A stretch of 64,000 nucleotides of DNA from an uncultured virus (IMG/VR IMGVR_UViG_3300028454_001154) (IMGVR_UViG_3300028454_001154); one strand, 5' to 3'. Shown: positions 19,229-47,227, counted from the stretch's first letter. Notes: generated from the sequence alone by a model not told the origin. A program made the numbers and translations.

Positions 19229-20110
19229 ATGCTGAACGGTCTCATGGCAGATGTTGTCAAGCTTCTCAAACAGGAATGCGACGAGATGCTTAAGGCAGAA
19301 ACAGATCAAGATGCCCGGATTGCCTTAGATGGGATCGTTGAGCTTGTTCAGCTTCTGCTGCGCTGTGAAACCAAAAACTTCTTCACTTCGGCATTTGGAC
19401 ATGATAAAATGATTGATAAGGACTTTATCAATCAAGATGCCAGTCAAAGGTTGGCCTTCGGTCTATGCAAGAAATACGGCATTGACTTGCCCAAGGGAGC
19501 AACCCCCGCTGATGCTTGGGCTGCTCTGAAAGAGCATACTGGCAAAGAAGCAGCCGACTTCTATGCGGAGAGCGGAAACAAAGGCGCTGACAAGATCAAG
19601 TTCAATACTGCCAGTCAAAAGACTTTTGTCAAAAACCTCAACGCTGCAAAAGAAAGCCGTCCACAACAGGATCGCTGGCGTGTCACTGGAATGGACATTT
19701 CCGAGTTGAGAAAGTATCATCCGAATGCAAATCTTCATGTTACAGATGGTGGCTCAACTGTTGCAATCGATAATGGAGATATTGTTGCAGTTTGCAAAAA
19801 TGGCGGAGACTTTAGCGGTAGTGTGCTGCTTCGATTTGCTGTCAAAAACGGTGGGAAAAAGCTCGATAGCTATGACGGCAACCATGAGTTTTATGTCAAG
19901 AATGGATTTGAACCAGTTACTTGGTGCAAATGGGACGATGAGTTTGCTCCAAATGATTGGGATTCGGCTTCAAACAAAAGGGAGAACATCATATTCTATC
20001 GATACACTGGCAAGCAAAGTCCATATAAAAATGCGCAGGACTTCTACCAAGCAGTTCCTCCCAGCCGCGATTATGACGCCGCTTATGCAGAAAGGGATAG
20101 ACAGTTATGA
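19229..20110 (+). CDS. Putative effector: helical leader, NQD site, C-terminal GNAT-like domain
   Basis: GDIVAV...G..LL..AV.NGGKKLDSYD....FY..NGFEPV....W...AP..W resembles a GNAT fold. Confidence 0.55.
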   Translation: MLNGLMADVVKLLKQECDEMLKAETDQDARIALDGIVELVQLLLRCETKNFFTSAFGHDKMIDKDFINQDASQRLAFGLCKKYGIDLPKGATPADAWAALKEHTGKEAADFYAESGNKGADKIKFNTASQKTFVKNLNAAKESRPQQDRWRVTGMDISELRKYHPNANLHVTDGGSTVAIDNGDIVAVCKNGGDFSGSVLLRFAVKNGGKKLDSYDGNHEFYVKNGFEPVTWCKWDDEFAPNDWDSASNKRENIIFYRYTGKQSPYKNAQDFYQAVPPSRDYDAAYAERDRQL

Positions 20111-20367
20111 CAAAGGAATATCTATTTCAACAGTATCTTGAATCCGCCAAAGACGCCTTCAGAAGTGTTTGGTCCCCTGAAAGAATCTCGGACGAAACGA
20201 GAGACAGATACCTCACTGATGAAATGGCAGACTTTATGAAGAGCCGTTTTGATTCAGATTACTCTGCATACAAACGCGGAGAAATAACTGAGAAGATTTT
20301 GACAGTCGGAGCCGGACGATCTGCAGGATACTGTGCCGGGCTAATGTATGATGGTCCTGTAGAATAA
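20107..20367 (+). CDS. Small protein, candidate immunity for the upstream effector
   Basis: 86 aa, ATGA-coupled to the upstream gene. Confidence 0.45.
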   Translation: MTKEYLFQQYLESAKDAFRSVWSPERISDETRDRYLTDEMADFMKSRFDSDYSAYKRGEITEKILTVGAGRSAGYCAGLMYDGPVE

Positions 20368-20380
20368 ACGCAGAAAGAGA

Positions 20381-20674
20381 GTGATGACAACGAGGCTGAT
20401 TATCCAAACGAATGCACTGTTCGGCTACGGATACCAAGTGGCGCTAAAGCCAGATGATGGATCTTGGGCCGTCCTTGATTATAGACCTTACCGCCTTTCT
20501 GAGGCTGTGAAGATGGCCCGGAAAGCACTCCAGATTATCAATAGGCACAATCGTTCAAAGTACATGCTTGAAGACGTTCTTCATATCGAGGTTGACGCTC
20601 TTGAACTCAACAGGAAATACGATTTCATTAGCGCCCGAATATGGAAGGCCTTCCAGCAGAACAACATGGAATAA
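20381..20674 (+). CDS. Hypothetical protein
   Basis: ORF followed by a hairpin at ~20678-20714. Confidence 0.5.
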   Translation: MMTTRLIIQTNALFGYGYQVALKPDDGSWAVLDYRPYRLSEAVKMARKALQIINRHNRSKYMLEDVLHIEVDALELNRKYDFISARIWKAFQQNNME

Positions 20675-20852
20675 TACAGCGCTCCGCATTGCCAAATGAG
20701 ACAAGCGGAGCGCTTTCATATACTCTCCTTTTGCAGTCCGTAATATTGTACAGCATAACAATTCGGCTGTCTGACAATATTTGACAAATGGTGGTTATAT
20801 GTTACGATAAAGATACAGAAAACACCATACAAAATGCAAGGAGGTTTCGACA

Positions 20853-21311
20853 ATGAAAAAAGCATTGTTCACCCCGGAAGAGCTGGAGGAACTCAGAAGG
20901 TTCGACGAAGAGATCGATGCTGAGGGCTTCACCTGTGATGAGCTGGAGGATGCCGCCGTTGTCGAAGGGCTGCTGTTTCCGGAACGTGAAAAGCAGCTGG
21001 CAAGACGCCGCGAACTGTGGAAGCTGAGAGTGCAGCAGATGATCACCGATGGAACTTACGATGCATTCAGAAAGAAGCAGGCCGAATATGCGGAGGCTCA
21101 TAAGGAAGAAATCGCAGAGAGAAGGCGTCGGTATTACGAGGAGAACAAGGAGCTCATCCAGATGAAGCAGCGGGAGTACCGGATCCGGAAGGGCTTGACG
21201 ATGTCTCCCGAGGAGAAAGCCCGGAAGAAGGCCGAGAACAAGGCAAAGAGGGCCGAATACATGAGAGCATACAGAGCGGCGAAAAAGGCAGAGCAGCTCA
21301 AAATGGCTTAG
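20853..21311 (+). CDS. Highly charged hypothetical protein with own promoter
   Basis: TTGACA-16-TACGAT promoter at 20781, AAGGAGG RBS. Acidic N-terminus and K/R/E-rich C-terminus. Confidence 0.6.
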   Translation: MKKALFTPEELEELRRFDEEIDAEGFTCDELEDAAVVEGLLFPEREKQLARRRELWKLRVQQMITDGTYDAFRKKQAEYAEAHKEEIAERRRRYYEENKELIQMKQREYRIRKGLTMSPEEKARKKAENKAKRAEYMRAYRAAKKAEQLKMA

Positions 21312-21323
21312 CCCAATATAAAG

Positions 21324-21354
21324 GAAAGCACGGGAGCTTGCCCGTGCTTTCTTT
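21324..21354. terminator. Bidirectional terminator
   Basis: GAAAGCACGGG / CCCGTGCTTTC between convergent genes. Confidence 0.75.
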
Positions 21355-21357
21355 ATG

Positions 21358-23193: not shown

Positions 23194-23232
23194 AGGGCTG
23201 GAATGGGGATCCGGCTGCGAAGGAGGTAGGAC

Positions 23233-28068: not shown

Positions 28069-28101
28069 GATAATATCCCTCTTAAGGTGGTGGAAAGGCT
28101 C

Positions 28102-29512: not shown

Positions 29513-29587
29513 TGGGGTGTCGCCAAGCGGTGAAGGCATGGGACTTTGACTTCCATATCGCAGGTTCGATTCCTGCCACCCCAGCCA
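29513..29587 (+). tRNA. tRNA-Gln(UUG)
   Basis: Acceptor TGGGGTG/CACCCCA, anticodon loop CTTTGAC, T arm GCAGG-TTCGATT-CCTGC, encoded CCA. Confidence 0.92.
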
Positions 29588-29588
29588 T

Positions 29589-29663
29589 GCTCGGGTAGCT
29601 CAATGGTTAGAGCGGGCGCCTTTTAAGCGCTTGATGATAGTTCGATTCTGTCCCCGAGCACCA
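29589..29663 (+). tRNA. tRNA-Lys(UUU)
   Basis: Acceptor GCTCGGG/CCCGAGC, anticodon loop CTTTTAA, T loop TTCGATT, encoded CCA. Confidence 0.88.
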
Positions 29664-30924: not shown

Positions 30925-31683
30925 ATGAACTATTATCAATTGCTGCAGCGAGAAGTCAGAAAACGCCTCAGGCGTGATGCCGACATCCCTGATGATGAAA
31001 TCATCTTCAGAACAGCGGAAAACGGCAAGGTGTATGCCATCAATCAGGCCACCGGGGAAACGAGCGGCCTTGGGCCAGAGTTGGATAAATCCCAAAACGG
31101 GAATGGCAAAAGCGCAGGGCATGTTTCTGACGAAACGAGAAAGGCTGCGGAAGCTCATGGAATAGACATAGATGAAACCGTTCGGAGTCCAGAAAAAGAC
31201 TCCGACTGGACTTTTATCAATCCGAGAGTCGGAACAAGCGATGAGTTCGATAACAATTGTGCCCACTGCGCTGTTTGCTTTGAACTCCGAAGACGCGGGA
31301 TGGACGTTACGGCTGCCCCGATCGACGGGATGCACCAGCGAGAACTTGCGAAGAAGTTCAAAGGCTTCAAGTGGGAATCGCTTACAGCTAAGCGAAAAAA
31401 GTCCTCCAAGGCTGAACTGGACCAAGCCCTATCTAAACTCGGAGACGGCGCCAGAGGAATTGTCTATGTTTGGTGGGACGGTAAAAGTTGGGGACACTTT
31501 TTCAACTTTGAAGTAGTTGGAGGAACTGCACGCTACTTTGATGGGCAGGAAGATGCCAGAGATGTGGAAGCAGCATTTACTATGTGTCGTCCTTCTAAGA
31601 CTCAGTACGCGAGGACGGACAACCTTGAGTTGAATGAAGATACATTTTCTTGCGTGGAGAACAGAAAGAAGGGACGGTCATGA
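30925..31683 (+). CDS. Papain-fold toxin (Tox-PL / glutamine deamidase-like) with RRD-ENG leader module
   Basis: NNCAHC...ELRRRG.DV.A, GHFFN, YFDGQ give a Cys-His-Asp triad pattern. Confidence 0.75.
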   Translation: MNYYQLLQREVRKRLRRDADIPDDEIIFRTAENGKVYAINQATGETSGLGPELDKSQNGNGKSAGHVSDETRKAAEAHGIDIDETVRSPEKDSDWTFINPRVGTSDEFDNNCAHCAVCFELRRRGMDVTAAPIDGMHQRELAKKFKGFKWESLTAKRKKSSKAELDQALSKLGDGARGIVYVWWDGKSWGHFFNFEVVGGTARYFDGQEDARDVEAAFTMCRPSKTQYARTDNLELNEDTFSCVENRKKGRS

Positions 31684-31895
31684 TAAGCAAAGAAAAGGCT
31701 CTTGATATCGCGAAAAACAAGCGAACTGGCATCAAGCTCATCGATTCCTTTGAAGCGGGCCGTTGCTGGGCGTTTGTATTTGCTCCGGAAGATTGGGACG
31801 GAACAGATGGAATCGGAACTGCACCCACCTTCGTCGATAAAGAAACGGGCGATATTGTTCACATGAGCATGACCGAATACCTCAAATACCTTTAA
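31680..31895 (+). CDS. Small protein, candidate immunity for the papain-fold toxin
   Basis: 71 aa, ATGA-coupled. MIS.E.A..IA...W.F...FVDKETG pattern. Confidence 0.6.
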   Translation: MISKEKALDIAKNKRTGIKLIDSFEAGRCWAFVFAPEDWDGTDGIGTAPTFVDKETGDIVHMSMTEYLKYL

Positions 31896-32503: not shown

Positions 32504-34840
32504 ATGGCCGATAAGAATGCTTCGCGGCTGAAACAGATCGACAGATACAATCACTTGATTGAGCGGGAAATGGGCGTCACAGTAGTTCGCCCTTTCAGAC
32601 AAGATGGATACATCAACCTCGTAAACCGCTATGGCACTTCGAAGGATATCAATGAACATTATCGGTTCATGCCAGAGCCGGATGTTCCGGATGAAGTGAT
32701 TTCGCGATTCTACGAAGGCAACGGTTTGTTCGCGAAGATCATCGATGCCCCCGCAGAAGAAGCCGTCAAGCATGGCTTTGAACTGGAGGATGTCACTGAC
32801 AGCAGACTCGTTACCTTCTACAGCGAAGCACTGGACGAGCTGGATTGGGAAGAAACTGCTATGACGGCTGTCAAGTGGGCCAGATTGTTCGGCGGCTCCA
32901 TTGCTGTCATGCTCATCAACGATGGCAGAGGACTGGAAGAACCGCTTGACTGGAGGAACATCAAGTCCATTGATGATATCCGGGTCTTCGACAGGTCGCT
33001 TATCAGTCCTGATTACCAAAGCCTGTACAACTACGAAGGCTTCGACCCGTTCCGGACAAGAGGCTCCCGCCTTGGTATGCCCGAGACCTTTCAGGTTTCC
33101 AGCATGTATGGAACCTTTGTAGTCCATGAAAGCCGCTGTCTTGTTTTCCAAAACGGCATTCTCCCTGAAAACACGGAAAGAAGCGAGTATCAGGTCTGGG
33201 GCGTTCCCGAGTATATCCGCATCCATCGGGCTGTCCGTGATGCCGAGATCGCTCACGGCAATGCACCAAAGTTGCTTGAACGATCCGTCCAGCCTGTCTA
33301 CAAAATGAAGGATCTGTCAGCGGAGCTTTCTACAGAGCAAGGCGAGAACTTCCTTCTTCGCAGGCTGCAGGCCATCGACGCGGCGCGTGGCTTAATGAAC
33401 AGCATAGTCGTGGATGCCGAGGGCGAGGATTACCATTTCGAGCAATTCAGCTTTAGCGGGATCAACGATGTATTGGCAGCTTCCTGCAACATGCTTTCCG
33501 CCGTAACGAATATTCCTCAGACCATCCTGTTCGGTCAGCCTGTCGGAGGTCTCAGCTCCACGGATGATACGGCGATGGAGAACTACTACAACTACGTCGA
33601 GCGCATTCAGAAACGAATGCTTCGAAGCAATCTTAGATATCTGCTGTCTGTCATTTTCCAAGCTGGTGTTCGCACTGGTGAGGTTGATGAAGTTCCCAAG
33701 ATCAAGGTTAAGTTCAATCCGCTGTGGTCGCTTTCTGATGCAGAGCAGGCGTCCCTTGAACAGCAGAAGGCTCAGGTCCAGCAGACCAAAGCTCAGACAG
33801 CTCAGATTTATGTTGGCATGCAAGCCATCGATCCTACCGAGGTTCGCAAGAAGCTGGCTGATTCTGAAGAGTTTGACGTTGAGAATATGCTCGACGAGTA
33901 CGACGATGAAGACCTGTTTGGCGAGGAGATCCCGGAAGAGCTGTCCTATCTTAGCGAGGAAGACCAGCAGAAGGCTCTCGAACTGTACGGCAGTTATGGC
34001 GGAGCCCATCCTCCTCAGCCGCAAGCGCAAGGAGAAGGCGGCGAACAACCGGGCATGGATCCTGCAGCAGGGATGATTCCTCAAATGCCAGGCGTTGCGG
34101 AAGCACCCAAAAACACCGATCCAGGCACAGAAGGCTCTGCATCTCCTGCGGCTCCAGCAGCTACGAAGCTCCCTCAGGATATGAGCCCGGAAGAACTCGC
34201 AAATCTTAATAAAGCCCCCAGAATGGGAGAAAGCGAGGAAAAGGATAAACTACCTTCCGAATCAGAAAACAAGGATTCTGAGGCTTTTTCTGCGATTTCC
34301 AATTCAGGCGAGGACAAAAAAACTATTGACATTGCTTCCGTTCATGATATCGTATCCTTAAAGGATTACATCCTCCAGTTTCAAAGCGACGAAACCATGC
34401 ATGCCGATTTCGGAAGAAAGGGCATGAAATGGGGCCAGCATATCTTTGGCAATGAATCCGAGACGAGCAAAGCCAATAGAAAAGACCTGATGGCAAAGCT
34501 CAATAACGGAACTTTGTCTTATAAGATGAGTGCGTCAAGGCAAAACCGCCACAGAAAGGGAACACCCGAAAATGCCAAGGCAGCCGCAGCGGGATCAATA
34601 AAGTCCGTCGTTACTATTGGCGATGCAGAACTGAAACGCATTGTCAACAATCACGAAGGTAGCTTGCGGGTAGTTAAAAAGAGTGACGGCAGCTATCGGG
34701 AGTTTTTCCGCGCCGAAAAGAATATCGGAATAGCTGTCGGCAAAAGCGGTAAAGGATCGCTCACGGTATATGGATGTATCTTCTACAGCCGATACGGCTG
34801 GCATGTAGTTCCTGTGTTGGAGGAAGAGATATATGGATAA
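32504..34840 (+). CDS. DUF1073-type portal protein fused to a C-terminal Ntox50-like RNase toxin domain
   Basis: Portal motifs KIIDAPAEEA, WARLFGGS, IPQTILFGQ, NYYNYV, FNPLW. After an acidic linker: QNRH..G...IG......T....IFYSRYGWHVVP. Confidence 0.85.
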   Translation: MADKNASRLKQIDRYNHLIEREMGVTVVRPFRQDGYINLVNRYGTSKDINEHYRFMPEPDVPDEVISRFYEGNGLFAKIIDAPAEEAVKHGFELEDVTDSRLVTFYSEALDELDWEETAMTAVKWARLFGGSIAVMLINDGRGLEEPLDWRNIKSIDDIRVFDRSLISPDYQSLYNYEGFDPFRTRGSRLGMPETFQVSSMYGTFVVHESRCLVFQNGILPENTERSEYQVWGVPEYIRIHRAVRDAEIAHGNAPKLLERSVQPVYKMKDLSAELSTEQGENFLLRRLQAIDAARGLMNSIVVDAEGEDYHFEQFSFSGINDVLAASCNMLSAVTNIPQTILFGQPVGGLSSTDDTAMENYYNYVERIQKRMLRSNLRYLLSVIFQAGVRTGEVDEVPKIKVKFNPLWSLSDAEQASLEQQKAQVQQTKAQTAQIYVGMQAIDPTEVRKKLADSEEFDVENMLDEYDDEDLFGEEIPEELSYLSEEDQQKALELYGSYGGAHPPQPQAQGEGGEQPGMDPAAGMIPQMPGVAEAPKNTDPGTEGSASPAAPAATKLPQDMSPEELANLNKAPRMGESEEKDKLPSESENKDSEAFSAISNSGEDKKTIDIASVHDIVSLKDYILQFQSDETMHADFGRKGMKWGQHIFGNESETSKANRKDLMAKLNNGTLSYKMSASRQNRHRKGTPENAKAAAAGSIKSVVTIGDAELKRIVNNHEGSLRVVKKSDGSYREFFRAEKNIGIAVGKSGKGSLTVYGCIFYSRYGWHVVPVLEEEIYG

Positions 34841-35084
34841 AAGCAAGGTTGATCTCATGAGAGAGAGTCTCGGAGAGATTGTCAGGTTGCGAGATACTGA
34901 AGGACATGTCGTTACTGGCAGATGTGTCATGTTCTCAACGGCTGAAGACAATGATCTTGATGATACGGGCAACGCTGAGGCATCGATAGCATTGTTTTGG
35001 AGAGAAAACGGCAATTTTAACGCAGATGACTTCGACGAAAGCCAAATCCTTTCTATCGAGATCTTGCCAGAAAAGAATCAGTAA
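34833..35084 (+). CDS. Candidate immunity protein for the portal-fused toxin
   Basis: 83 aa, acidic, overlaps the portal stop. G..V......G....G...EDND...ESQILSIEIL pattern. Confidence 0.65.
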   Translation: MDKSKVDLMRESLGEIVRLRDTEGHVVTGRCVMFSTAEDNDLDDTGNAEASIALFWRENGNFNADDFDESQILSIEILPEKNQ

Positions 35085-35189: not shown

Positions 35190-38100
35190 TTGGATACTGA
35201 ATACTATAATGCTCTGCAGCGGCTTGAAATCCCTCAGGCCACGTTTGACAACATCATATCGGATGAAGGCACCCGGCAACAGATTGTCGAGTGCCTTTAT
35301 CATTGCTTCACTAACGTACCTTCCTTAAAGGAGGTTGCGTCTGTTCTGCTGCAATACACCGCCGCCCATGTCCATATGGATGATGACGACATCGATTGGA
35401 TCACTGTCGAGAACGGCGAGCATGTTCCGCTCAAAAACGGAACGGCGATTGGCGGGCCGCTCAAAGGGGCTGACTTCGGCTATGCCAAAAGCGAAACAGG
35501 CTTTTCTTCTAAAAGCAAAAAAGCAGAATCTGCCTTTACACCAAAACGGTCAGATTATGCATTCGAGCAGAAGGATCAATACGGTGTTGTCAAGGTGTCT
35601 GACTTCGACCCGTATGATCAGCGCGATGCTTGGGAGGAAATCAACCGAGACAAGCTGAAAGAGCTTGTAGATCAGGACAGAGAAGCATCCAAGAAGGAAG
35701 GCCGGGCGCGGACACCTATTACCGCTCTGATTGACCGGGAATGGTATGGTTCCAAAACCGAGAAAGTCACCCCAGACAGCTTCGAGCTGATGGATGACGT
35801 TAAGGCCGACAATGTTTTGGCCGAGAAGATGCCGAGGAACGTGTTCCTTGGCTGGTTCCGCGAGGCTGACAGCAATTACAAGCCGAGGGTCATCGATTCC
35901 ATCATCAGCACACCGGAGACGAGAACAGCAGCCCTCAGCATTATGTATGAGAATTATCGTCAGCTTGTCGACGATACTCTTTCATTCGAGGATTTTCTGA
36001 CGACTCCCGTCAAGATGTATCGTGGCGGTCATGGACAGAAGCACATGAAAGAGGACATCTTTTCCGCCTACTCTTTCAGCAAAAGCACCGCTCAAAAGTT
36101 CGCCGGGAACGATGGAAACGTCTATGAAGCTGAGATCCGGCCAATAGACACTTGGGGCAGTGTTACCACAAATAAGGAATCTGAGATCATGGTCCCGTCG
36201 TGGATCGCTCCGAATGGCAATGTTGATCATGCCGATTCTGCCTATGACGAATGGTTGGAAGACAACCTCGATCAGTTTGCCTCTGACGATGAGGAGAAAG
36301 ACTTTTCCAATTTCCGCATGAAAGATGGAGCCAAAGTCCGATCTGCCATCCGAAAAGAGGATGTCGCTGCTGCGTGGAAATCCTTCAAAGAGACAAGGCA
36401 AGACGCTGATGATGTAGACTGGATCACCGTGGAAAACGGGACACATGTTCCCATCGACAAAAGTGGCAAAGCTGTCGGCGGACCTCTTGAAGGAAAGGAT
36501 TTCAGCAAGGCGCAAAGCCAGAAGAAGGCATTCTCGTCTGTTTCCAAGTCTGACACCTCGAACTTTGGCAAGCCCGGAAAGTATCAGGTTTATCGCTCTG
36601 GCGGTATTTTCGATTCTCCGCTCGGCTATCTTTCCTTTGGCATTGACAGAAATCAATCTGAACCATATGAGAAGGAAAGAGGCAAGCCGATAGAAGCATA
36701 CGATGTTGAAATCAAAAAGCCGTACAGCATGACCGGATCCGATTTCAACGATATGCAGGATGAAATCTGCAAAAAGTATCTCGGCAAGTCTTACTACGAA
36801 GGCGAAAACCTTTCCGAAATGCGCCAAATCATGAGCGAGGCTGCTGAAAAGCTGGAGCAGGAAGGATACGATTCAATTCTTCTCGAACAGAGAAACGCGC
36901 TGTCTGGCGAAAGCAAATATGAAGTTCTTCTCCTGAATAAGTATAAAGACCGTGCGGTTTCCACTTCTGACAAGAGCAATTCTGGTGCTACCGACAACAG
37001 AAAACAGCTTACTCCCAAAGAAAGCGCAAAACAGACTGCTGACCTCAACAAACATCTCCATGAAGCAGTCGATGCCGAGACATCCATGGAGAAAAAGTTC
37101 AATGCCGCCAAGGAGGCTATAAAGAACGCCCCTGTTGGTCAGAGCGTGAAGGTCGGCTTTACTGAATACCGCAAGCTGTTCGACACGGACGACAACCAAG
37201 AGAAATGCTACGCAATCGGAAGCAACGACCATCCTTCGAGATCATTCGACGAAGTCATGCACTTGGTTGGTTATGATGGCTGGGGCGCAGAACCTGAGTT
37301 TGTCGATTTCGTTTCTCAAATGAAAGCAGCTCAGGATAAGGTCAATGAGCTCCGCGATTCTGGCAAGGTTTCTGGATCCGATGAAGTCAAAAAGGCCGAA
37401 GAAGGCTTGATCAATTCCCGCAGTTCCGATTACGGAAAACCCGGAGAATATGCCATATATCGCACTGGCGCTATTCCCCAAAAAGGAATGACGTTTTTTG
37501 CAGCCACCAAAGAGGGCGCGGATTCTTATGCCGGGCTGCATCCTGAAGGAACTACTGTCCAGTATAAAGTCAATCTTTCCAACCCGCTTGTTGTGACGGG
37601 ATCTGCTGACGGTGAATGTCTGAGAAAGGCGTATGAGACACTGCATCCGGGACAAAAGATGGAAGGTGAGCTCAACTCCAAGTCGTGGATGAAAGCTGAT
37701 AAGCAGAATGCAGCAGCCCTTGCCAGCAGCGAATACGACTCCATCATTTACATCGTCAATGGAAAGCCTACTGAGATTCAGATGCGGGCAAATGATGCTG
37801 ACAAAAAGGCGGAGAAGCTCGGCTCCTATACAACGACAGCGTGGTCCAGAAGCGGCAGAAATCTCGAACGTGCCATGTACGATGATATGTTCAAAAAGGA
37901 GCCTGACGATTATGTCAGAGTAGACGGTAGAGAAGATGGCGGCCCCGGATCCGGGAACTTCAATCACAAAGGAAGGCCCGGGGAGCAAGGCGGCTCAGCA
38001 CCCGGCAACGGCTCCAGAGAGGTTGCACACGGTAAGGACATTACCAAAAGCTATAATGGCCCTACCGACATCAAGTCTGTCATCCATGCTCAGGGCTTCG

Positions 38101-39401
38101 ATGGTTTGCCCAAGGTCGTTAAGAAAGCTGAGTTTGATGCTGCCGTCAAGAAAAGCAGTTTCATAGCCCAAAGAACATACTCCGCATCATCTCAGGAGAT
38201 TCTGGATGCATACCGAGATCAGCTGTACAACGGCGAATGGTATGTTGAATGCACTGTCGGTGGCGCCGGATATGGTCAGGGCATGTACTGTGCCGCTGAT
38301 TATGATGGGGAACTCAGCGATGGCATTAGAACTGAGATTCTCCATTACCAACAGCTTTACGACAGGACGGCAACTCATGAAGAAGCCATGGAAACGCTTA
38401 CGGGTTTGCTTCAGACATCCGTAGTTCGTAGGGCAAAGAATGATCTCAATGAGCGGTTCCACAAGTATGTTGATGGCTTTGATTTCCAAAGCGGCAAATG
38501 GAAAGAGGACTTTCGAGAAGAAGCAAAGGCGTTCAAAGACTCTGACCCCACTCTGTATGATAAGCTGTTGGGCTCCCTGCGACAGAAGGAAAGCTGGTAT
38601 GATGATCAGCTTCAGCAGGCGAAGTTTATGAGCGTCTCTGAGATCGCTGGAAAGTATCATATTCCCGTCGAAGTTGATGTTCCCTCATTTACGGAAACGC
38701 TTACGCTTGATCCAAGCGCGAAAATCATCACATATGATGATATCGATGGTATCTATAATGGGCGAATGGCAGAAAGCGAGACCAAGGCCATCCGCGACGG
38801 TGTACTCAAGAAGAGTGTTGAGAGTTTGGATGATAACGAGAAGACGTTTGTCAGGTACAATATTTTGTTCGGAACTGAAGATAGTGTGTCTTGGGATGAA
38901 GTGTACGAAGCGGCCAAGGATATGTCGAAAGAGAAACGGTCAGAGCTTGTCGCACTGTCTCGCAGCATCTATGAACAAGCGAGCAAGGAAATAGATAAAG
39001 CAAAAGATGAGCGTTATGAGACAGCCAGAAAGAACAGGGATAAATACCAAGACATTGGAGCGTTCGCAGCCGCTCTTGGATACGACGCCATCAATGCTGA
39101 GAATCATGGAGCTTCTGGGTCCTATACGGTTGTTCTAAACAGGACGAAAGTTCTGTTCCTTGATGAAAGTGAGCATATGGACAGCAAAGAGGATTCTGTT
39201 ATCACGTTCCAGCTCGGCAAGGATGGTGTTGTTTACGCTATTAAGGATCGAAAGGTTGTCGGCTGGGTCAAAGAGTATTTCTCCCAAAAGGAAGAGGCTG
39301 CCTCCGATCGCAAAGACAATCGCACCGATTCCAAGCGTGTTCTCAGCTATGAAGAGCTTCAGAATGCCTATACCAAGGCGAATAAAGCCGATATTGTATA
39401 G
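35190..39401 (+). CDS. 1403-aa polyvalent protein with four ADP-ribosyltransferase-like domains
   Basis: YRG..SAYSFS..ESE; two related YR.G..F....Y....P..YDSI..E domains; GFDGLP..YGQGMY..GYDAI..VLNR. Repeated linker modules lie between them. Confidence 0.7.
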   Translation: MDTEYYNALQRLEIPQATFDNIISDEGTRQQIVECLYHCFTNVPSLKEVASVLLQYTAAHVHMDDDDIDWITVENGEHVPLKNGTAIGGPLKGADFGYAKSETGFSSKSKKAESAFTPKRSDYAFEQKDQYGVVKVSDFDPYDQRDAWEEINRDKLKELVDQDREASKKEGRARTPITALIDREWYGSKTEKVTPDSFELMDDVKADNVLAEKMPRNVFLGWFREADSNYKPRVIDSIISTPETRTAALSIMYENYRQLVDDTLSFEDFLTTPVKMYRGGHGQKHMKEDIFSAYSFSKSTAQKFAGNDGNVYEAEIRPIDTWGSVTTNKESEIMVPSWIAPNGNVDHADSAYDEWLEDNLDQFASDDEEKDFSNFRMKDGAKVRSAIRKEDVAAAWKSFKETRQDADDVDWITVENGTHVPIDKSGKAVGGPLEGKDFSKAQSQKKAFSSVSKSDTSNFGKPGKYQVYRSGGIFDSPLGYLSFGIDRNQSEPYEKERGKPIEAYDVEIKKPYSMTGSDFNDMQDEICKKYLGKSYYEGENLSEMRQIMSEAAEKLEQEGYDSILLEQRNALSGESKYEVLLLNKYKDRAVSTSDKSNSGATDNRKQLTPKESAKQTADLNKHLHEAVDAETSMEKKFNAAKEAIKNAPVGQSVKVGFTEYRKLFDTDDNQEKCYAIGSNDHPSRSFDEVMHLVGYDGWGAEPEFVDFVSQMKAAQDKVNELRDSGKVSGSDEVKKAEEGLINSRSSDYGKPGEYAIYRTGAIPQKGMTFFAATKEGADSYAGLHPEGTTVQYKVNLSNPLVVTGSADGECLRKAYETLHPGQKMEGELNSKSWMKADKQNAAALASSEYDSIIYIVNGKPTEIQMRANDADKKAEKLGSYTTTAWSRSGRNLERAMYDDMFKKEPDDYVRVDGREDGGPGSGNFNHKGRPGEQGGSAPGNGSREVAHGKDITKSYNGPTDIKSVIHAQGFDGLPKVVKKAEFDAAVKKSSFIAQRTYSASSQEILDAYRDQLYNGEWYVECTVGGAGYGQGMYCAADYDGELSDGIRTEILHYQQLYDRTATHEEAMETLTGLLQTSVVRRAKNDLNERFHKYVDGFDFQSGKWKEDFREEAKAFKDSDPTLYDKLLGSLRQKESWYDDQLQQAKFMSVSEIAGKYHIPVEVDVPSFTETLTLDPSAKIITYDDIDGIYNGRMAESETKAIRDGVLKKSVESLDDNEKTFVRYNILFGTEDSVSWDEVYEAAKDMSKEKRSELVALSRSIYEQASKEIDKAKDERYETARKNRDKYQDIGAFAAALGYDAINAENHGASGSYTVVLNRTKVLFLDESEHMDSKEDSVITFQLGKDGVVYAIKDRKVVGWVKEYFSQKEEAASDRKDNRTDSKRVLSYEELQNAYTKANKADIV

Positions 39402-40581: not shown

Positions 40582-41514
40582 TTGGATAATCAACATCTTC
40601 ATGAGATGACAAAGGAGGCTGCCAAGGGCGCTTTCAAAGGAAAGAAAAGCCTCCCTTGCAAAACGGTCCCGAGATACCCTGCATCAGCCGAACGGGAGTT
40701 CCGCAGGGTTATGAACGCCTATATGAAAATCCTGAACAGCGAACTCAAGAAAGAGCTGCCGTCCATCATGAAAGCCTATAAGGCGGAACTCGGAAATGAT
40801 TCCCGGTTTGACAGCTTCAATGATTTGGAGAAGAAGATCAGAGAGTCGTTTCTGATTATCTCAAAGGCGCTGGAGCAGAAATACTTCCGTTTTGATTTGA
40901 AGCGGAAGTTAGACGCCATTGCCAAGAGGGCCAAAGAAATCACTGCTGATGAGTGGTATAGGACGGTAAAGCAAACGCTCGGAATCGACCTGATGAAGGA
41001 CTACTACAAAGGTTCGTTTTATGAGGAAGGCGTCAAGAACTGGGTAGGGCAGAATGTGCAGAATATTCACACACTGCCCAATCAGGTGCTTGATGATATC
41101 CGGGACACCATCATAGATGGATATCGGAAAGGCATCCACGTTAAAGACCTTCAGAAGGAAATCCAGCACAGGTACAACATATCGAAAGAAACGGCTCAGA
41201 CGATTGCGAGAGACCAGATGTCTACGCTTAATGCGCAGATAACTCAGGAACAGCACAGGTCGGCTGGCGTGACACGGTACAAATGGTCAACGTCAAGAGA
41301 CCAGCGCGTTCGCGATTGCCACAGGGAGCTTGATGGGAAAATCATTTCTTGGGACGATCCTCCCGAAATGTGGTACATGACAAAGTCCAGAGGCAAAGTA
41401 TACACAGGCAGGCGATGCCATCCCGGCGAAGATTATTGCTGCAGATGCGTCGCACTGCCTGTTTTTGATGAAGACACAATAATCCTCCCGATGAATGGGA
41501 CGGACAAGAGGTAA
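40582..41514 (+). CDS. MuF / SPP1 gp7-family minor head protein (short form, no toxin extension)
   Basis: IARDQ...LN, YKWSTSRDQRVRDCH..LDG, HPGEDYCCRCVA.P. Confidence 0.9.
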   Translation: MDNQHLHEMTKEAAKGAFKGKKSLPCKTVPRYPASAEREFRRVMNAYMKILNSELKKELPSIMKAYKAELGNDSRFDSFNDLEKKIRESFLIISKALEQKYFRFDLKRKLDAIAKRAKEITADEWYRTVKQTLGIDLMKDYYKGSFYEEGVKNWVGQNVQNIHTLPNQVLDDIRDTIIDGYRKGIHVKDLQKEIQHRYNISKETAQTIARDQMSTLNAQITQEQHRSAGVTRYKWSTSRDQRVRDCHRELDGKIISWDDPPEMWYMTKSRGKVYTGRRCHPGEDYCCRCVALPVFDEDTIILPMNGTDKR

Positions 41515-41980: not shown

Positions 41981-44356
41981 TTGTATAACGATTCCTTTCT
42001 GGATACGCTTGCCCATGCATACCGTGACGCAAGAGACAAAAATGAAAGCCTTGCCAAGTACCTGATAGGCGTATTCCATGAAATCGGTGTACTCCACAAC
42101 GATGGTGGTCCGGGCTCCGGGAATCATGGTCATAAGGGTGTACCGGGGCAGGTGGGTGGTTCCGCTCCGTCAGGCTCTGGAAGCGGCCCCAAATTCGTTG
42201 GCAGGTCTAAGAGAGACTTTTTCCCTGCCACATCATATATGGATAGCCCCGTTTTTCAGAAAGCGGTAAAGGCCGCGAAAGAAGCATTGCAAAAGCGTGA
42301 GCAATTGTCCAAACGAATAGAAGAGATCGATACTGAACTCAAGACGGAATCCAAGCCGAAGCCTCGAAAGTATTGGACGGATAAAGACATGATCGATGAT
42401 TTACTCGGTCGTCGGCCCAAGATTCTTACAGAAAGAGGCGAACAACTCCAAAAGGAACGGAAGAAAGTCTTCAATGAAAAGATGGACGCTGATCATCAGT
42501 TCACTGATGAAGGCGAAAAGCTAAATAAGCTAAAAAAAGAAGCCCATCGGCGTGAGATCGAAAGCTTTCACCCAGAACCTTTGGTCCCTGCGCAGAACGA
42601 TGATTACGAGGGCTTCACTCTTGAAGAAACAAGCAACAGCTACGGTGACGAATATCTGCACAATGGGCAAGGCGTTATTTGCGAGATGACTCCAAAGGAA
42701 TACCTTGAGCGATGTGCATATGAGATCTTTGACGACGCGACTATAGAGTCTTGTGTTTCGGCCATTGACGAAGAAATCGCTCGGGGATATGCCAAAAAAA
42801 TGCGCGATGGCACTAAGTTTCATCTTCCATACCTGAATTATAAACAGGGCGGGCAGGAAGGTCGCCACCGTGCTTATGCTGCTTACTTGTGCGGCATTGA
42901 CAAGATTCCTGTTCTTATAATCGGACGCTCAAGACGTCAAGACGGCGGGCCCGGTTCCGGCAATTTCGGCCATGAAGGTCGGCCCGGCGAAGTCGGCGGA
43001 AGCGCTCCTTCTGATGATGCCAGCGATACCCCTACAGCGACGAATCCTCAGGCTATTTCCAAACGCAGGGCCAACGAAACAATAGCCTCCATTCTTGGAA
43101 ATGGCGAATCCTCTGATGACCGAAGGGACAAGCTCAAGAAAATCGTCGATCAGTTGCATCCGGGCAGCAAAGTCCAGATGCCCGACACTTGGGATAATGA
43201 CGATGGAACCCATGTTGTCTATATCAAGGATGATGTCAACGGTGAAAGCCGCTGGTATCAAAAGTACGACGGGCAAAAAATGTACATGAGCGAAGACGAC
43301 CTTGTGTACTACATGCTCAGCGAGTACGACAATTTCAACGGGAATCTCTGCAAAGTGACATCCTCCGCTGAAAGCGAGGCAGAAAAGCGGGCGGCAGTTG
43401 AAGAATGGAACAAGAAATACAATTGGCGATATAATGCTTCGATCTGGCAGGACCATGGAGCGCTGACAGAACAAGCATCTATTCATATGCAGAAGTTCGA
43501 TCTGGATAACTGCGGTTATGGATTTGAACTTACAGGGTCGGACGGGAAGAAGTATATTAAAGACCAATACCTTGGATGGGTTGACAGCGACACATACAAG
43601 AAAGCAGACATGCGCAAGCTGAAGAATCCGACATTTGAAGGAGATTTCTTCGATATAAACCTCGGAATGAATGGTGTTTCTGCAGAATCTTGCGCGAAAG
43701 TACGAGAAGTATATGAAAATCTTCCCGAAAAGCTCAAGACGGCTTATGAAGACCGATTCAGAAATCAATCCTGTTTTGTCCAGAACCCGGAGTATGGCGT
43801 CAGCCATTGCGATGCTTACGGGAATGTTTCCCTGACACCTGATTCGTCCGCTCGAACCGTTTTCCATGAGTATGGGCACAGCATTGACTTCTACAGCGAG
43901 AAGATAAATGAGTTTCCATCTCAGCATCTGGACAGGTTGGGCAACAGCCCTCAGCAATATCGGCAGGATGTAGAGGCTATGGCAAAGGTTGTCGGGCTTT
44001 CCACTGACGGAAACGGAAACCTTACAGAATCGGAAGCCGATCGCACCCAAAAGTATTGGAGCTGGGCAAAGAATCAGGAAAAGAAAATCGCTGGGTTTGA
44101 AAATGTCTCCGATGCCATATCAGCTCTCACACACGCTTCGTGTGGAGAAGCGCTTTACGGAGGCCATGAGTCATCGTACTGGTATAAAGTATCTTCGCGT
44201 GGCGCCGCAAGCATGCGCTCCGCTGAGTTCTGGGCAGAATACTGCCAGATGAAAGCTTTTGGGCAAGAAGAAGCGCTTGACCTTATGAAGCAGATTGCGC
44301 CGAATCTTTACGATGCCTGCGAAAAGACTTATATGGAGGTCATTGAGAATGGCTAA
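41981..44356 (+). CDS. Polyvalent effector: shared leader, ParB/Srx-like domain, zincin metallopeptidase
   Basis: Two DGGPGSGN modules. QEGRHRAYAA, and FHEYGH...EFWAE. Confidence 0.7.
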   Translation: MYNDSFLDTLAHAYRDARDKNESLAKYLIGVFHEIGVLHNDGGPGSGNHGHKGVPGQVGGSAPSGSGSGPKFVGRSKRDFFPATSYMDSPVFQKAVKAAKEALQKREQLSKRIEEIDTELKTESKPKPRKYWTDKDMIDDLLGRRPKILTERGEQLQKERKKVFNEKMDADHQFTDEGEKLNKLKKEAHRREIESFHPEPLVPAQNDDYEGFTLEETSNSYGDEYLHNGQGVICEMTPKEYLERCAYEIFDDATIESCVSAIDEEIARGYAKKMRDGTKFHLPYLNYKQGGQEGRHRAYAAYLCGIDKIPVLIIGRSRRQDGGPGSGNFGHEGRPGEVGGSAPSDDASDTPTATNPQAISKRRANETIASILGNGESSDDRRDKLKKIVDQLHPGSKVQMPDTWDNDDGTHVVYIKDDVNGESRWYQKYDGQKMYMSEDDLVYYMLSEYDNFNGNLCKVTSSAESEAEKRAAVEEWNKKYNWRYNASIWQDHGALTEQASIHMQKFDLDNCGYGFELTGSDGKKYIKDQYLGWVDSDTYKKADMRKLKNPTFEGDFFDINLGMNGVSAESCAKVREVYENLPEKLKTAYEDRFRNQSCFVQNPEYGVSHCDAYGNVSLTPDSSARTVFHEYGHSIDFYSEKINEFPSQHLDRLGNSPQQYRQDVEAMAKVVGLSTDGNGNLTESEADRTQKYWSWAKNQEKKIAGFENVSDAISALTHASCGEALYGGHESSYWYKVSSRGAASMRSAEFWAEYCQMKAFGQEEALDLMKQIAPNLYDACEKTYMEVIENG

Positions 44357-44591
44357 GATCGATACAGGGTACACTCCAACAGATAAAGATAAAGCATTTT
44401 CAAAAGCTGCGTTAGATCGTGGCTGTCCATATCAGGCGAAATACATCCTCATGTTTGGCGTTGATGCTTTGGAACAAAGCCGTCTCATTGAAGGCATCAT
44501 TCCAAAGCATGAGGCGGTCTATAAGAAATGGGTTGAGGAAGGCCATCCGTGGGACTGGTATTTTGACCTTCCAGAAGACACGATTCTATAA
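44349..44591 (+). CDS. Small protein, candidate immunity
   Basis: 80 aa, GGAGG RBS, overlaps the upstream stop. Confidence 0.55.
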   Translation: MAKIDTGYTPTDKDKAFSKAALDRGCPYQAKYILMFGVDALEQSRLIEGIIPKHEAVYKKWVEEGHPWDWYFDLPEDTIL

Positions 44592-44602: not shown

Positions 44603-45763
44603 ATGGCGATAGATCGATTCCTCGATGATCTTGCATCGGCTTACAAAGGATCGCTCGGAACCAACGATCATCTTACTCTGTATTTGCTGGGCATTTTCCG
44701 TGAGATCGGTGTCATCCGAACTGACGGAGGCCCGGGAAGCGGAAACTGGGGCCATGAAGGCCGTCCAGGAAAAATCGGCGGCTCTGCCGAAGGCGGCGGC
44801 GTTCATAATAGGGAAGGAAGCAAAGCTCAGGGCTTCACCTCGTTTTCCAAAAAGAGTGCTGCTGCAGCCAAGCCGCACTCGTACACGATTGCTGACAGGA
44901 ATCTCGTCAAACAAATGAAAGGCTCCCTTATCAAGGTCAATGGCCGGATATATTCCGTAGCCGGGGATACCCTGTACGATATCAAGGCTCAAACATTCAG
45001 GCATGACTGGCCCACTATGGACGACACCGTTCAAGTGTTCCTCCACCATGGAGAGAACAAGAACTATTCCAAGGTCAAAGAGACGACAAGGCAGCATTTT
45101 GAAAGCATTGCTAAATCGTCCTTTAATGCTCAAAACGGGCAAGAAGCTGACGATAAGTTCCGCGAACAGTCCGGTAAGGTTTGGCGTACTTTGAGCCATG
45201 CACAGAAAAAAGACCTTTTTGGTTACACAGACTTCGATTATTCAGCCATAAACAGTGCTCTCAGGAGCAATGGAGGTTCCAGTCCGCTTGATGACGAGAA
45301 AACTGCAAGTCAGATTCGCAATATCACAAGAGCTATCGACAAGTCAGAACTCCAGCAGGACACTACCCTTTATCGCGGCGTTGCTAAGGGAACCTTCGAA
45401 AGTTTCATGGGGTTGCCATCAGGCTCACTTCAAGCTGACACTGTTGATCAGCTCGTAGGACGATGCAGAACAGATCACGGATTCCTGTCTTGCGGCTCGT
45501 CAAAAGAGAATGGGATGCCTCATTCCAACGTGCAATTGGAGATACTATGTCCAAAAGGTACTAAGGGTCTATACGCGGAGCCCTTTTCCGCTTTTGGCGA
45601 AGGCGATGGTGAGAAGTGGGACGGACGATCAAAGCAGAACAGCATTTCTCTTGAGGGCGAAACAATTCTGCAGCGGGGTACGTCGCTCGTTATTCTGTCT
45701 GCTGCTTATGACGGGAAGAAATACCGAATCAAGTGTGCTGTAAGAGGGCAAAGCCATAACTGA
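44603..45763 (+). CDS. VIP2/C3-like ADP-ribosyltransferase with shared leader
   Basis: YT...Y..IN..LR, LYRG, GFLSC, EGETILQRGT (R-S-ExE). Confidence 0.85.
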   Translation: MAIDRFLDDLASAYKGSLGTNDHLTLYLLGIFREIGVIRTDGGPGSGNWGHEGRPGKIGGSAEGGGVHNREGSKAQGFTSFSKKSAAAAKPHSYTIADRNLVKQMKGSLIKVNGRIYSVAGDTLYDIKAQTFRHDWPTMDDTVQVFLHHGENKNYSKVKETTRQHFESIAKSSFNAQNGQEADDKFREQSGKVWRTLSHAQKKDLFGYTDFDYSAINSALRSNGGSSPLDDEKTASQIRNITRAIDKSELQQDTTLYRGVAKGTFESFMGLPSGSLQADTVDQLVGRCRTDHGFLSCGSSKENGMPHSNVQLEILCPKGTKGLYAEPFSAFGEGDGEKWDGRSKQNSISLEGETILQRGTSLVILSAAYDGKKYRIKCAVRGQSHN

Positions 45764-45833
45764 TTTCTGCTTGCCTTTGCCTTTTGAAATGGTACAATGT
45801 AGATATAGAAACCATCTACAAGGAGGTCGTTGA

Positions 45834-46076
45834 ATGAAGAACCCGAGATTTGCCGACGATTCCGATTTCGGCGAGACCGTTGGTCCTGATCCCGATAAGA
45901 TTCCTTGTCGGAACTGTGCTTTGAGAGCGGAGGATTCCAAGTTCGGAAGCTTTGTCGAACCCGGATGCATTTCGGCGAAATGTCAAGTCTACGACATCAA
46001 ACCGAGTGAGATCCTGCTTGAGTATAAGGAATGTCCATATCACGTTGCCGAGGACAATCCTGAAGAAGACGAGTAA
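45834..46076 (+). CDS. Small Cys-rich protein, candidate immunity, with own promoter
   Basis: CRNC...C..Y..KP......CPY. Promoter TTGCCT-16-TACAAT at 45771 and terminator at ~46093-46123. Confidence 0.65.
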   Translation: MKNPRFADDSDFGETVGPDPDKIPCRNCALRAEDSKFGSFVEPGCISAKCQVYDIKPSEILLEYKECPYHVAEDNPEEDE

Positions 46077-46150
46077 CAAACCAATACTGCATGAAGCAGA
46101 GTACATTAAGTGCTCTGCTTTTTGTTTTGCCTGAACGGGGATGATGTTAT

Positions 46151-46324
46151 ATGAGGGAGAAGGAACTAATCGAAGTTTACATACGGACTGAGGCCGGGAA
46201 AACAGTCTGTATTTGTGAGCGGTCTCACAAGATGTGCGATAAAAAGTGTGAATGTGACATTGTCGAACGCGACAGGTTCCGTGGCTGGCAAGATGTCATG
46301 CGGGTGAATAAATACGGGAAATAG
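46151..46324 (+). CDS. Small Cys-rich protein (57 aa, not in ORF track)
   Basis: Open frame MREKELIEVY...CIC.....C...C.C...NKYGK directly before the next gene. Confidence 0.45.
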   Translation: MREKELIEVYIRTEAGKTVCICERSHKMCDKKCECDIVERDRFRGWQDVMRVNKYGK

Positions 46325-46329
46325 TTGTC

Positions 46330-47022
46330 ATGAAAGACTTTTCTGATTCCTTTATCAAACAGGTTGCCACAGCCTATATAGAAAGTGTTGGCGTGAACGA
46401 CGGCCTTGCAGATTATCTTCTCAGCATCCTTCAAGAAATCGGCGTTTTTACGCCATCATCTATTGACAAATCTTGCTCTAATAGTATGATGGTAACAGAA
46501 GCGAAGCATTCGGATTACGGCGTCAAAGGTATGAAATGGGGCGTTCGTAAAGAACGGCTATCCAAAAAGGACCTCGACGCTCTTACACGCTACAAATCGT
46601 CTGAGTCTTACAAAATCAATGCCAAGCTCCGCGATGGAGGGTATGACGCTCTACCCGATCCAGACAAGGCTTTTGTCGACCAGTTGGACGCTGCGCTGAA
46701 GAAGATGCCCCACTATGAAGGCCCTATCATTCGTGATCTTCTAATCGATGATCCAGAGGAATTATCGGATTTCCTTTCTAAGCATCCGCAAGACGGCCTA
46801 TCTCAATATGAAGCATATTCCTCTTTCAGCAAAAAGCCGGGATACAATCCAGATGCGAATGTCCACCTTGTAGTGCAGCATTCCAAGAATGCCCGTGATA
46901 TCAGTAATATTGGCCTTAACGAGAATGAGGTCATATATGAACGGGGGGCTCGATTCCATGTTTCGCGGATAATCCAAAGCGGAAATCAGTGGTACATCAT
47001 GGAGGAAGAAGTCAATGGATGA
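46330..47022 (+). CDS. VIP2/C3-like ADP-ribosyltransferase with shared leader and GMKWG module
   Basis: AL.RY....SY.IN.KLR, LD.ALKKMP.YEG...R, YSSFS, ENEVIYERG. Confidence 0.82.
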   Translation: MKDFSDSFIKQVATAYIESVGVNDGLADYLLSILQEIGVFTPSSIDKSCSNSMMVTEAKHSDYGVKGMKWGVRKERLSKKDLDALTRYKSSESYKINAKLRDGGYDALPDPDKAFVDQLDAALKKMPHYEGPIIRDLLIDDPEELSDFLSKHPQDGLSQYEAYSSFSKKPGYNPDANVHLVVQHSKNARDISNIGLNENEVIYERGARFHVSRIIQSGNQWYIMEEEVNG

Positions 47023-47227
47023 TGAAGAGTATATTCCCGGTTTTGAGCACGTACAGAAAGGCTACGGCGGGAAGATAGCAAAACTGTGTGGATTTGTTCA
47101 CGTCGACGAGGCCACCCGCGCCAAAAATTACGAAGAAGCGCTCAAGATGGTAGCTTGGTATGAAGAAGGCCGCGAAAAAGCTCGGCAAGAGATGATTAAG
47201 AAAGGTCTTATTGGGCCGGATGATTAG
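47015..47227 (+). CDS. Small protein, candidate immunity
   Basis: 70 aa, GGAGG RBS, overlaps the ART stop. Confidence 0.55.
   Translation: MDDEEYIPGFEHVQKGYGGKIAKLCGFVHVDEATRAKNYEEALKMVAWYEEGREKARQEMIKKGLIGPDD

Follow-up and report, generated by a model that had tools for sequence, protein, structure and literature searches.

How does a tailed phage choose the proteins that it will inject, load them into its head and release them there? To our knowledge this is understood only for T4 and a few giant phages. The question is raised by a stretch of DNA of 64,000 nucleotides from an uncultured virus (IMG/VR IMGVR_UViG_3300028454_001154), called here the window, which holds seven open reading frames (ORFs), at 19229, 30925, 32504 (the portal gene), 35190, 41981, 44603 and 46330, that a first-pass annotation had taken for a capsid-packaged arsenal of effectors. 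All seven are present as claimed. The grammar attributed to them, in which a leader or the portal is followed by a D-ending site, a short module (here called a tag) and variable cargo, holds in outline; ORF 19229, however, carries no module at all. What we observe is this architecture, the conservation of the tags as peptides, an exchange of cargo cassettes and a residue before the tag that is specific to the phage. On these grounds we see about an even chance that the cargo set of the window consists of virion effectors of the polyvalent-protein or portal-fused polymorphic-toxin class, headed by tags and cut by the head protease.

Three tags and the cargo behind them

The tags are of three kinds, mutually unrelated in sequence: tag 1, GGPGSGNxGHxGxPGxxGGS; tag 2, DWITVENGxHVP...GGPL; and tag 3, [FY]GxKGMKWG, which corresponds to Pfam DUF7211. 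All nine copies lie on the plus strand at the positions claimed for them. Tag 1 occurs at 37938-37997 (ORF 35190), 42104-42163 and 42944-43003 (both in ORF 41981) and 44726-44785 (ORF 44603); tag 2 at 35397-35426 and 36420-36449 (both in ORF 35190), with a variant, IIFRTAENGKVYAI, at 31006-31035 in ORF 30925; and tag 3 at 34409-34435 in the portal gene, where it reads HAD-FGRKGMKWG, and at 46516-46542 in ORF 46330. A six-frame scan with the regular expressions GGPGSGN.(1-2)H.G.PG..GGS, DWITVENG.HV and [FY]G.KGMKWG found no occurrence in any other frame of the window. Against the DUF7211 model (PF23847; cut-off 27 bits) the copy in ORF 46330 scores above the threshold (29.5 bits) and the portal copy below it (13.4 bits). 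The part that precedes a tag is either the core of the portal, a further cassette or a leader that is short and helical. An [R/H/N]-x-D site had been proposed at this place, and [R/H]-x-D indeed lies 0-7 residues upstream of all nine tags, whereas the N alternative fits only the tagless ORF 19229; in all, the seven ORFs (4,140 residues) contain 24 instances of [RH]xD.

Compared in pairs, the four tag 1 copies of the window have the same residue at 17-19 of 22 codons, with 12-15 of those residues specified by different codons, and a nucleotide identity of 58-68%. That the same residues are kept by differing codons indicates selection on the peptide and rules out a recent duplication or a DNA-level joint. 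AlphaFold2 (AF2) assigns a predicted local distance difference test (pLDDT) score below 50 to the tag regions (residues 39-78 of ORF 44603; residues 1-73 and 320-356 of ORF 41981), whereas the domains flanking them are folded; ORF 41981 is modelled as two folded parts split by its low-confidence tag region. In these models the tags behave as linear motifs, low confidence being no proof of disorder. The three modules appear to be undescribed: Pfam contains no model for tags 1 and 2 and holds tag 3 only as a DUF family without an assigned function, and a full-text search covering open-access papers and bioRxiv found no relevant paper.

The cargo is variable. In ORF 30925 (30925..31683, plus strand, as are all features below unless stated otherwise) a basic helical leader ending in RRD, which resembles the ...RRxD leaders of tag-bearing proteins, is followed by the tag 2 variant and a papain-fold glutamine deamidase (Pfam Gln_amidase, E = 1.4e-11). 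The portal gene (32504..34840) encodes a portal core (Phage_portal_3, E = 8.7e-73), a linker with tag 3 and, at residues 677-770, an Ntox50 RNase-type toxin domain (Pfam, E = 1e-7). ORF 35190 (35190..39401) is a polyvalent protein of 1403 residues in the order leader, tag 2, cargo, tag 2, one or more cargoes, tag 1 and cargo. The three remaining tagged ORFs begin with a common leader of 40 residues (45-50% identity): ORF 41981 (41981..44356; 791 residues) continues with tag 1, a cargo with a GRHR motif (residue 294), a second tag 1 and a cargo with an HEYGH motif (residue 629); ORF 44603 (44603..45763) with tag 1, a small domain and a C3-like ADP-ribosyltransferase (ART; ADPrib_exo_Tox, E = 3.1e-26; AF2 pLDDT 82; Foldseek match to C3 exoenzyme, E = 3e-13); and ORF 46330 (46330..47022) with tag 3 and an ART (ADPrib_exo_Tox, E = 6.3e-10). 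In other tag-bearing proteins the leaders are likewise short, basic and helical and are diverse, and the leader of ORF 35190, which precedes tag 2 in the window, precedes tag 1 in P0072 and P0074. ORF 19229 (19229..20110; 293 residues) is found some 9 kb before the terminase gene and is included in the cargo set only because its C-terminal 170 residues, a cargo cassette, recur in tag-bearing proteins, with BLAST matches to P0129 (852-1028), P0090, P0126 and one ORF of the related locus L028.

The list of domains given by the first-pass annotation stands in part. Ntox50, the glutamine deamidase and the ARTs of ORFs 44603 and 46330 score above the Pfam cut-offs, whereas the other ARTs, the GNAT, the ParB-like domain and the zincin are weak or defined at the level of a motif. 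The four supposed ARTs of ORF 35190 yield two ART-PolyVal matches below the cut-off (E = 2e-4 and 0.026) and hhalign probabilities of 22-43% for one segment and about 1% for the rest, hhalign with such shallow alignments being a weak method by which even the two bona fide ARTs score only 63.5% against each other. For the GNAT of ORF 19229, the identity of which is unverified, the sole lead is a PDB profile match to GNA1 (E = 0.53). The ParB-like and zincin calls in ORF 41981 derive only from the conserved GRHR and HEYGH motifs: nothing was returned by Pfam (the protein and six homologues), by PDB sequence searches or by fold searches. The 791-residue model of ORF 41981 had no Foldseek match at E <= 1e-3, and the results of the VIA wide fold search were filled by a helical hairpin (residues 89-185); because the model is multi-domain, fold searches with the whole of it are weak tests. 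PDB sequence searches with six segments or profiles gave nothing significant.

Spread of the tags, cassette exchange and the preceding residue

A profile built from the four tag 1 copies of the window and searched against 1.84 billion cluster representatives matched 4,496 of them when the threshold was E <= 1e-3 and 108 when it was E <= 1e-30. A single protein may contain as many as 10 copies, at intervals of about 150-300 residues. The consensus of 432 copies, defined by regular expression in the top 150 proteins, is R-x-[K/L/A/D]-GGPGSGNFGHAGRPGxVGGS. Thirteen positions, the Asn and His among them, are invariant; ten near-invariant positions (GG, G-SGN, H and G) are set by the regular expression itself, and it is the others, such as R, P, G and GGS, that provide independent evidence. 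Pfam scans of 35 of the top 150 proteins identified ART-PolyVal, ADPrib_exo_Tox, MuF, Zeta toxin, Tad3 (a Thoeris inhibitor), DRAT, NUDIX, HipA/PI3K-like kinase, 2H phosphoesterase, pentapeptide repeats and topoisomerase IB, with no Pfam family in 18 of the 35. A search with the leader and tag of ORF 44603 returned 53 proteins, which carry ADPrib_exo_Tox (42), Gln_amidase (2), NUDIX alone (1) or no recognized domain (8). The same modules are thus found before different cargo in other phages, and the proposal withstands a check that had been named beforehand as one that could speak against it.

Tags 2 and 3 were also traced outside the window. By tblastn, tag 3 occurs in 134 records of cultured actinophages, at up to 7 places per record, phages of Streptomyces, Gordonia, Arthrobacter and Rhodococcus being among them. 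In Streptomyces phage GirlPower four genes between terminase and portal each encode a short leader, H, YGVKGMKWGVRK and then differing cargo, in which one HExxH motif and one GNAT-like stretch can be discerned by eye from the sequence. In Rhodococcus phage ReqiPoco6 (5575-9897) six consecutive genes between TerL and the portal, gp018-gp023, have ...FLAH-YGVKGMKWG at their start and differ from one another behind it; the annotation of gp020 notes its similarity to a Lactococcus phage 1706 structural protein. Variants of tag 2 (DWVTINGTH, QWITVNGTH and others) appear in 8 distinct contexts in loci related to the window by their portals, and three times in the protein P0128. No match to cultured phages was found by tblastn for tag 2 or for tag 1, the BLAST low-complexity filter being suspected in the latter case, and word-index searches with the tag 2 and tag 3 regions returned only the proteins of the window itself.

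The tags coincide with the borders at which cargo has been exchanged. Among 33 related portal ORFs, 29 are 678-1454 residues long with differing C-terminal cargo, typically in the order portal core, junction motif, NUDIX, tag and variable cargo, the cargo being NUDIX plus ART, a domain with a zincin motif, or other. The junction motif, ATKLPQDMS, lies at 34160..34186 between the core and the extension of the window's portal and recurs as APAATKLP[Q/E/V]DM[S/T] in 30 of the 33 related portals (L002-L034), the surroundings of which vary; judged by its sequence, which contains a D as do the sites before the tags, it may be the point at which the portal core is released. The cassettes of ORF 35190 match piecewise to P0066, P0072, P0074 and the portals of L002, L024 and L032. 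Its last cassette (residues 940-1403) stands directly behind a tag in those three portals, near the N-terminus of P0066 and in the middle of P0072, and the HEYGH cassette of ORF 41981 forms the end of the L028 portal gene. The same cassettes occur both in portal fusions and in free-standing genes. In comparisons of all pairs of the 150 tag-bearing proteins, 60% of 3,642 high-scoring segment pairs (HSPs) start within -12 to +5 residues of a tag start (random, 7.6%) and 49% end within +1 to +30 residues of the next tag start (random, 9.4%). As the HSPs are non-independent and the tags can be aligned throughout, these figures indicate that homology stops at the tags, on one side of them or the other.

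The residue that directly precedes the tag follows the phage. In the 98 proteins with at least three tags, the residue before GG is the same in 80% of tag pairs, compared with 25% after shuffling (1000 shuffles, maximum 32%), and the positions adjoining it are variable. This agreement extends to separate genes: three genes of L039 have K before the tag, four of L040 have L/A/F and two of L042 have R, while D is used in the window and its portal-related loci, and N in other phages. Within the window D stands before all three types of tag; in actinophages, by comparison, 11 of 11 copies of tag 3 follow an H. Since the residue is fixed across genes and tag types within a phage, it is the phage, rather than the tag, that determines it. 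Judged from these sequences, the pre-tag residue may be a cut site for a phage-specific protease that acts before a constant tag.

Two tag-bearing proteins may be mentioned for their cargo. P0084 (2443 residues) combines MuF, two ART-type domains and Tad3, an inhibitor of type I Thoeris, and is a case of an anti-defence protein as one cassette of a polyvalent protein. In L040, an L/A-type phage with the same portal_3, MuF and DUF2213 head module, a type IB topoisomerase (12859-14004) lies behind a leader of about 95 residues and a tag.

The prophage and the small genes behind the cargo

The window contains a temperate prophage that has a portal_3, MuF and DUF2213-protease head module together with contractile-tail and baseplate genes. 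The host gene queA (1-1029) occupies the start of the window, and beside it the minus strand encodes a serine recombinase (1283-3022) and a CI-like repressor (3064-3441), which indicate that the phage is integrated and temperate. The cargo genes, with the exception of ORF 19229, which lies outside the block, are interspersed among those for the large terminase (TerL; 28087-29499, in the late region), the portal, MuF and the protease. Two untagged genes share this head-gene block, a metallophosphoesterase (39465-40520; phrog_704, 'DNA repair exonuclease') and an HD-domain protein (41514-41954). The MuF head protein (40582..41514; 310 residues) has a Phage_Mu_F domain at residues 171-291 (E = 2.9e-23) and no added domain, in agreement with the earlier statement that it carries no toxin. 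The candidate cutting enzyme is the DUF2213 head maturation protease (48059..49630; PF09979, E = 1.1e-34; phrog_530, E = 1.7e-76), which has a long, acidic and C-terminal part that is scaffold-like, and it is followed by genes for a cement protein (from 49634) and the major capsid protein (from 50156), both on the plus strand.

The portal encoded by the IMG/VR contig L001 is identical to that of the window. A D-type tag pattern, which itself fixes the D, matched 45 loci in bacterial genomes; because 35 of these are in Clostridia-type gut or rumen bacteria, the phage is suggested to infect hosts of this kind. A DNA megablast of the region against cultured phages matched only one tRNA gene and a 43-nucleotide stretch of tag 3. 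Four tRNA genes (Gln, Lys, Thr and Gly) lie at 29513-29663, 30803-30878 and 32054-32127, among the terminase, cargo and portal genes, and that for tRNA-Thr is 89% identical to one of Bacillus phage Mater. Upstream of the terminase, 22582-25994 is a run of genes of the kinds that modify sugars or DNA, which encode a PglD-like hexapeptide acetyltransferase, a PIG-L deacetylase, a ParB-like nuclease, WbqC and a TET-associated glycosyltransferase-like protein, which together with ThyX (10013-10675) possibly form a DNA hypermodification module. An open frame of 1003 residues on the minus strand (48221-51232) overlaps the genes for the protease, the cement protein and the capsid in antisense; it is probably no gene and merely reflects their codon usage.

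Six of the seven ORFs had been reported to be followed by a gene of 70-86 residues, and such genes are found, with sizes of 86, 71, 83, 80, 80 and 70 residues and corrected starts for two of them (31680, 71 residues; 44349, 80 residues). The 86-residue gene (20107..20367) has AAAGGG upstream of its ATG and no family match. The 71-residue gene (31680..31895) provides a weak Imm35-like lead, its scores against an Imm35 cluster in the Atlas (feature score 0.81; TM 0.72) both lying below the bar of that tool. The 83-residue gene (34833..35084) is predicted to encode a small beta-barrel, with Atlas structure matches to unnamed clusters, and has GGAGG upstream, as does the 80-residue gene at 44349..44591, a homologue of which (40% identity) lies behind the homologous HEYGH cargo with which the portal gene of L028 ends. 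The second 80-residue gene (45834..46076; AAGGAGG upstream) is Cys-rich, and its homologue, with 5 Cys conserved, lies behind a homologous ART gene in L032. The 70-residue gene (47015..47227) has GGAGG upstream and no family match. A purine-rich, Shine-Dalgarno-like stretch thus precedes all six, GGAGG being present in four, and two of the six are co-inherited with homologous cargo (in L028 and L032). For two of the small genes, the only relatives found in viral contigs were in near-identical phages or short fragments. These look like real genes. From their sequence and position it is plausible that they are immunity genes of a temperate phage; alternatively, they may be loading chaperones.

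Proposed mechanism, its rivals and known systems

If the cargo proteins are indeed virion effectors, a leader or the portal core would position each of them in the procapsid, where the phage's own head protease (DUF2213 in this case) would cut behind the D of x-x-D, immediately ahead of the tag. The freed enzymes, each now headed by its tag, would be retained in the head and then exit with the DNA, the tag having a further role, for example in protease recognition on the primed side, in retention or in exit. The small gene behind each cargo gene would neutralise the enzyme in the lysogen or in the producing cell. More tentatively, the tags may be shared, interchangeable 'address tags' that are used across lineages behind a protease-matched cut site, and would then reflect a general rule for the loading, release and delivery of injected enzymes.

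Several points weigh against cutting by the head protease and delivery from the virion. We infer packaging, cutting, delivery and target alike, packaging being direct only for the portal fusion. The 150 tag-bearing proteins analysed were the top scorers and are consequently biased towards proteins with many copies, and the agreement of the pre-tag residue inside a protein is inflated by the common descent of that protein's repeats. An invariant stretch of 20 residues exceeds what a known head-protease site needs, and the tag must therefore serve for something beyond cutting. Some proteins have a tag just 8-12 residues from the N-terminus, and the portal ORFs of L005 and L009 (9965-12931) end about 30 residues past their second tag with no cargo behind it. 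L040, whose tags are of the L/A type, also has a DUF2213 protease (a weak match), from which it follows that the Pfam family alone does not predict the pre-tag residue. In the K-type phage G002 (90% complete) no head protease was recognisable by Pfam family search or PHROGs. The loci searched contain no homologue of four of the six small genes, and an immunity family was matched by none of the six. Phages of the K, L/A and R types are represented by loci and those of the N type by none, and a protease was seen only in L040 and L028, in both cases DUF2213; nothing on the cleavage specificity of DUF2213 was found in the available portions of papers on that family.

Some of these points would be met if the tags were never cut and acted instead as signals for loading, docking or ejection, binding a common partner such as the portal, the scaffold, the capsid interior or the exit channel, with the pre-tag residue as part of the recognition surface. 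Such a role would fit the length and near-invariance of tag 1, which go beyond the needs of a cut site, the presence of a tag at the start of every cassette, even right behind short leaders, and the cargo-less tag ends of the L005 and L009 portals; low AF2 confidence suits a binding motif equally well. It leaves unexplained, however, why one residue should be fixed per phage before three unrelated tags, and it requires chains of 1,400-2,700 residues with up to 10 motifs to cross the portal in one piece. We hold it to be unlikely, though far from negligible; docking and cutting are, moreover, compatible with each other. The weakest case is that for modules without any function as peptides, be they flexible linkers or recombination joints at the level of DNA. 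The modules do border exchangeable cassettes and have very low AF2 confidence, but the window's copies of tag 1 keep 17-19 of 22 residues at a nucleotide identity of 58-68%, which is too little for homologous exchange, and plain linkers would not be invariant over 4,496 clusters; there is hardly any likelihood that this is the explanation.

It could also be argued that processing is not the work of the head protease, and is carried out by a peptidase embedded in the cargo, such as the HExxH domain of ORF 41981, or by the tag itself. In the available part of its text, Iyer 2017 (PMC5512222) proposes zincin metallopeptidases (MPTases) as the processors of polyvalent proteins, HEYGH is kept in ORF 41981 and its homologues, an HExxH string is present in 60 of the 150 tag-bearing proteins, and tag 1 has an invariant Asn and an invariant His. 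The other 90 of the 150, however, lack HExxH, a bare string that is common by chance in long proteins; ORF 41981 has no zincin family or fold match; and self-cleavage has no need for a phage-specific residue before the tag. Processing of this kind is, in our judgement, improbable. Still less probable is that the proteins are polymorphic toxins that never enter the virion and are released at lysis, or used in the lysogen, in competition between bacteria, with the small genes as immunity genes and the tags as signals for export or activation. The phage is temperate and has toxin-type domains with adjoining small genes, and MuF toxins are tied to temperate phages in the portion of Jamet 2017 (PMC5576092) that was available. 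The portal of the window and 29 of 33 related portals are nevertheless fused directly to cargo, which puts at least those cargoes in the head; the same cassettes are shared between portal fusions and free-standing genes; and tag 3 arrays lie between terminase and portal in cultured actinophages of lytic type.

How does the system that we favour, virion effectors cut before their tags, compare with those already described? In what follows, statements about cited papers refer to the available portions of their text. Injected proteins of large phages offer one parallel: N-terminal propeptides, short or long, target them to the prohead, the prohead protease removes the propeptides at a short consensus, and the mature proteins exit with the DNA, the sites being three-residue motifs that end in E (AXE in SPN3US and SxE in phiKZ) and the proteases T4 gp21 and phiKZ gp175 (MEROPS S80) (Ali et al. 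2017, PMC5694885). The cargo ORFs 41981, 44603 and 46330 resemble the T4 Alt and internal proteins in having a common N-terminal leader. T4-type maturation employs a gp21-type S77 protease and an L/I-x-E site. In contrast to T4, SPN3US and phiKZ, the protease of the window is a DUF2213 protein, the candidate P1 residue is D rather than E, and the site is followed by an invariant tag of about 20 residues, of which T4 has none. With DUF2213 and D-ending sites, the system of the window may work like capsid targeting in T4 but is not a member of that group.

The likeness to MuF toxins, which have immunity genes and are found in temperate phages (Jamet 2017, PMC5576092), extends to a temperate life style, a toxin that varies at the C-terminus of a protein whose N-terminus is that of a virion protein, a small downstream gene and a position beside the portal gene. 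It differs in that the MuF protein of the window is toxin-free, the cargo being carried by the portal and by free-standing leader proteins, and the available portion of Jamet 2017 contains none of the strings 'linker', 'conserved motif', 'cleav' and 'glycine'. There is also a match with phage-type polyvalent proteins, which are capsid-delivered multi-enzyme proteins encoded near late genes, occur as portal or MuF fusions and in non-MuF forms, and are predicted to be released by proteolysis (Iyer 2017, PMC5512222). The claim of the first-pass annotation to a new, MuF-independent, capsid-packaged arsenal does not survive this comparison: such an arsenal is already embodied in the polyvalent proteins, and with the precedents in Iyer 2017, Jamet 2017 and T4, SPN3US and phiKZ a system independent of MuF fusion is not new.

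Like the polyvalent proteins of Iyer 2017, those of the window are multi-modular, belong to the late or virion genes of a portal-terminase phage, include a portal fusion and are predicted to be packaged and injected. At least two modules per polypeptide are present in ORF 41981, ORF 35190 and the portal-Ntox50 fusion, and a tag-carrying relative, P0075, has the ART-PolyVal domain (E = 3.8e-56). Of the repertoire described there (ART, GNAT, ParB, zincin and RNase), ART and RNase-type domains exceed the Pfam cut-offs in the window, the ART-PolyVal matches within ORF 35190 fall below them, and GNAT, ParB and zincin are seen weakly or as motifs. In place of one giant protein, the window has most of its cargo divided among several small genes, and the activities supported by Pfam (Ntox50, Gln_amidase and two ARTs) are in separate genes. 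The processing enzymes proposed there are embedded zincin MPTases; the tags, the phage-specific pre-tag residue and single-domain leader proteins do not feature in the available text, which contains neither 'linker' nor 'glycine' (Iyer 2017). Tag 3 matches the DUF7211 family; that it serves as a cargo tag for which others can be substituted is what we propose here. We know of no case in which the predicted cutting positions of polyvalent proteins have been located, and the tags provide exact candidates for them. If the tags do mark cut sites, it would become possible to interpret thousands of phage proteins that lack annotation as injected effectors, and the borders of their cassettes would be known; if they are address tags, they would disclose a general, undescribed rule by which tailed phages put together and exchange the enzymes that they inject. 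The tag grammar is thus best regarded as an undescribed variant within a known class of injected effectors.

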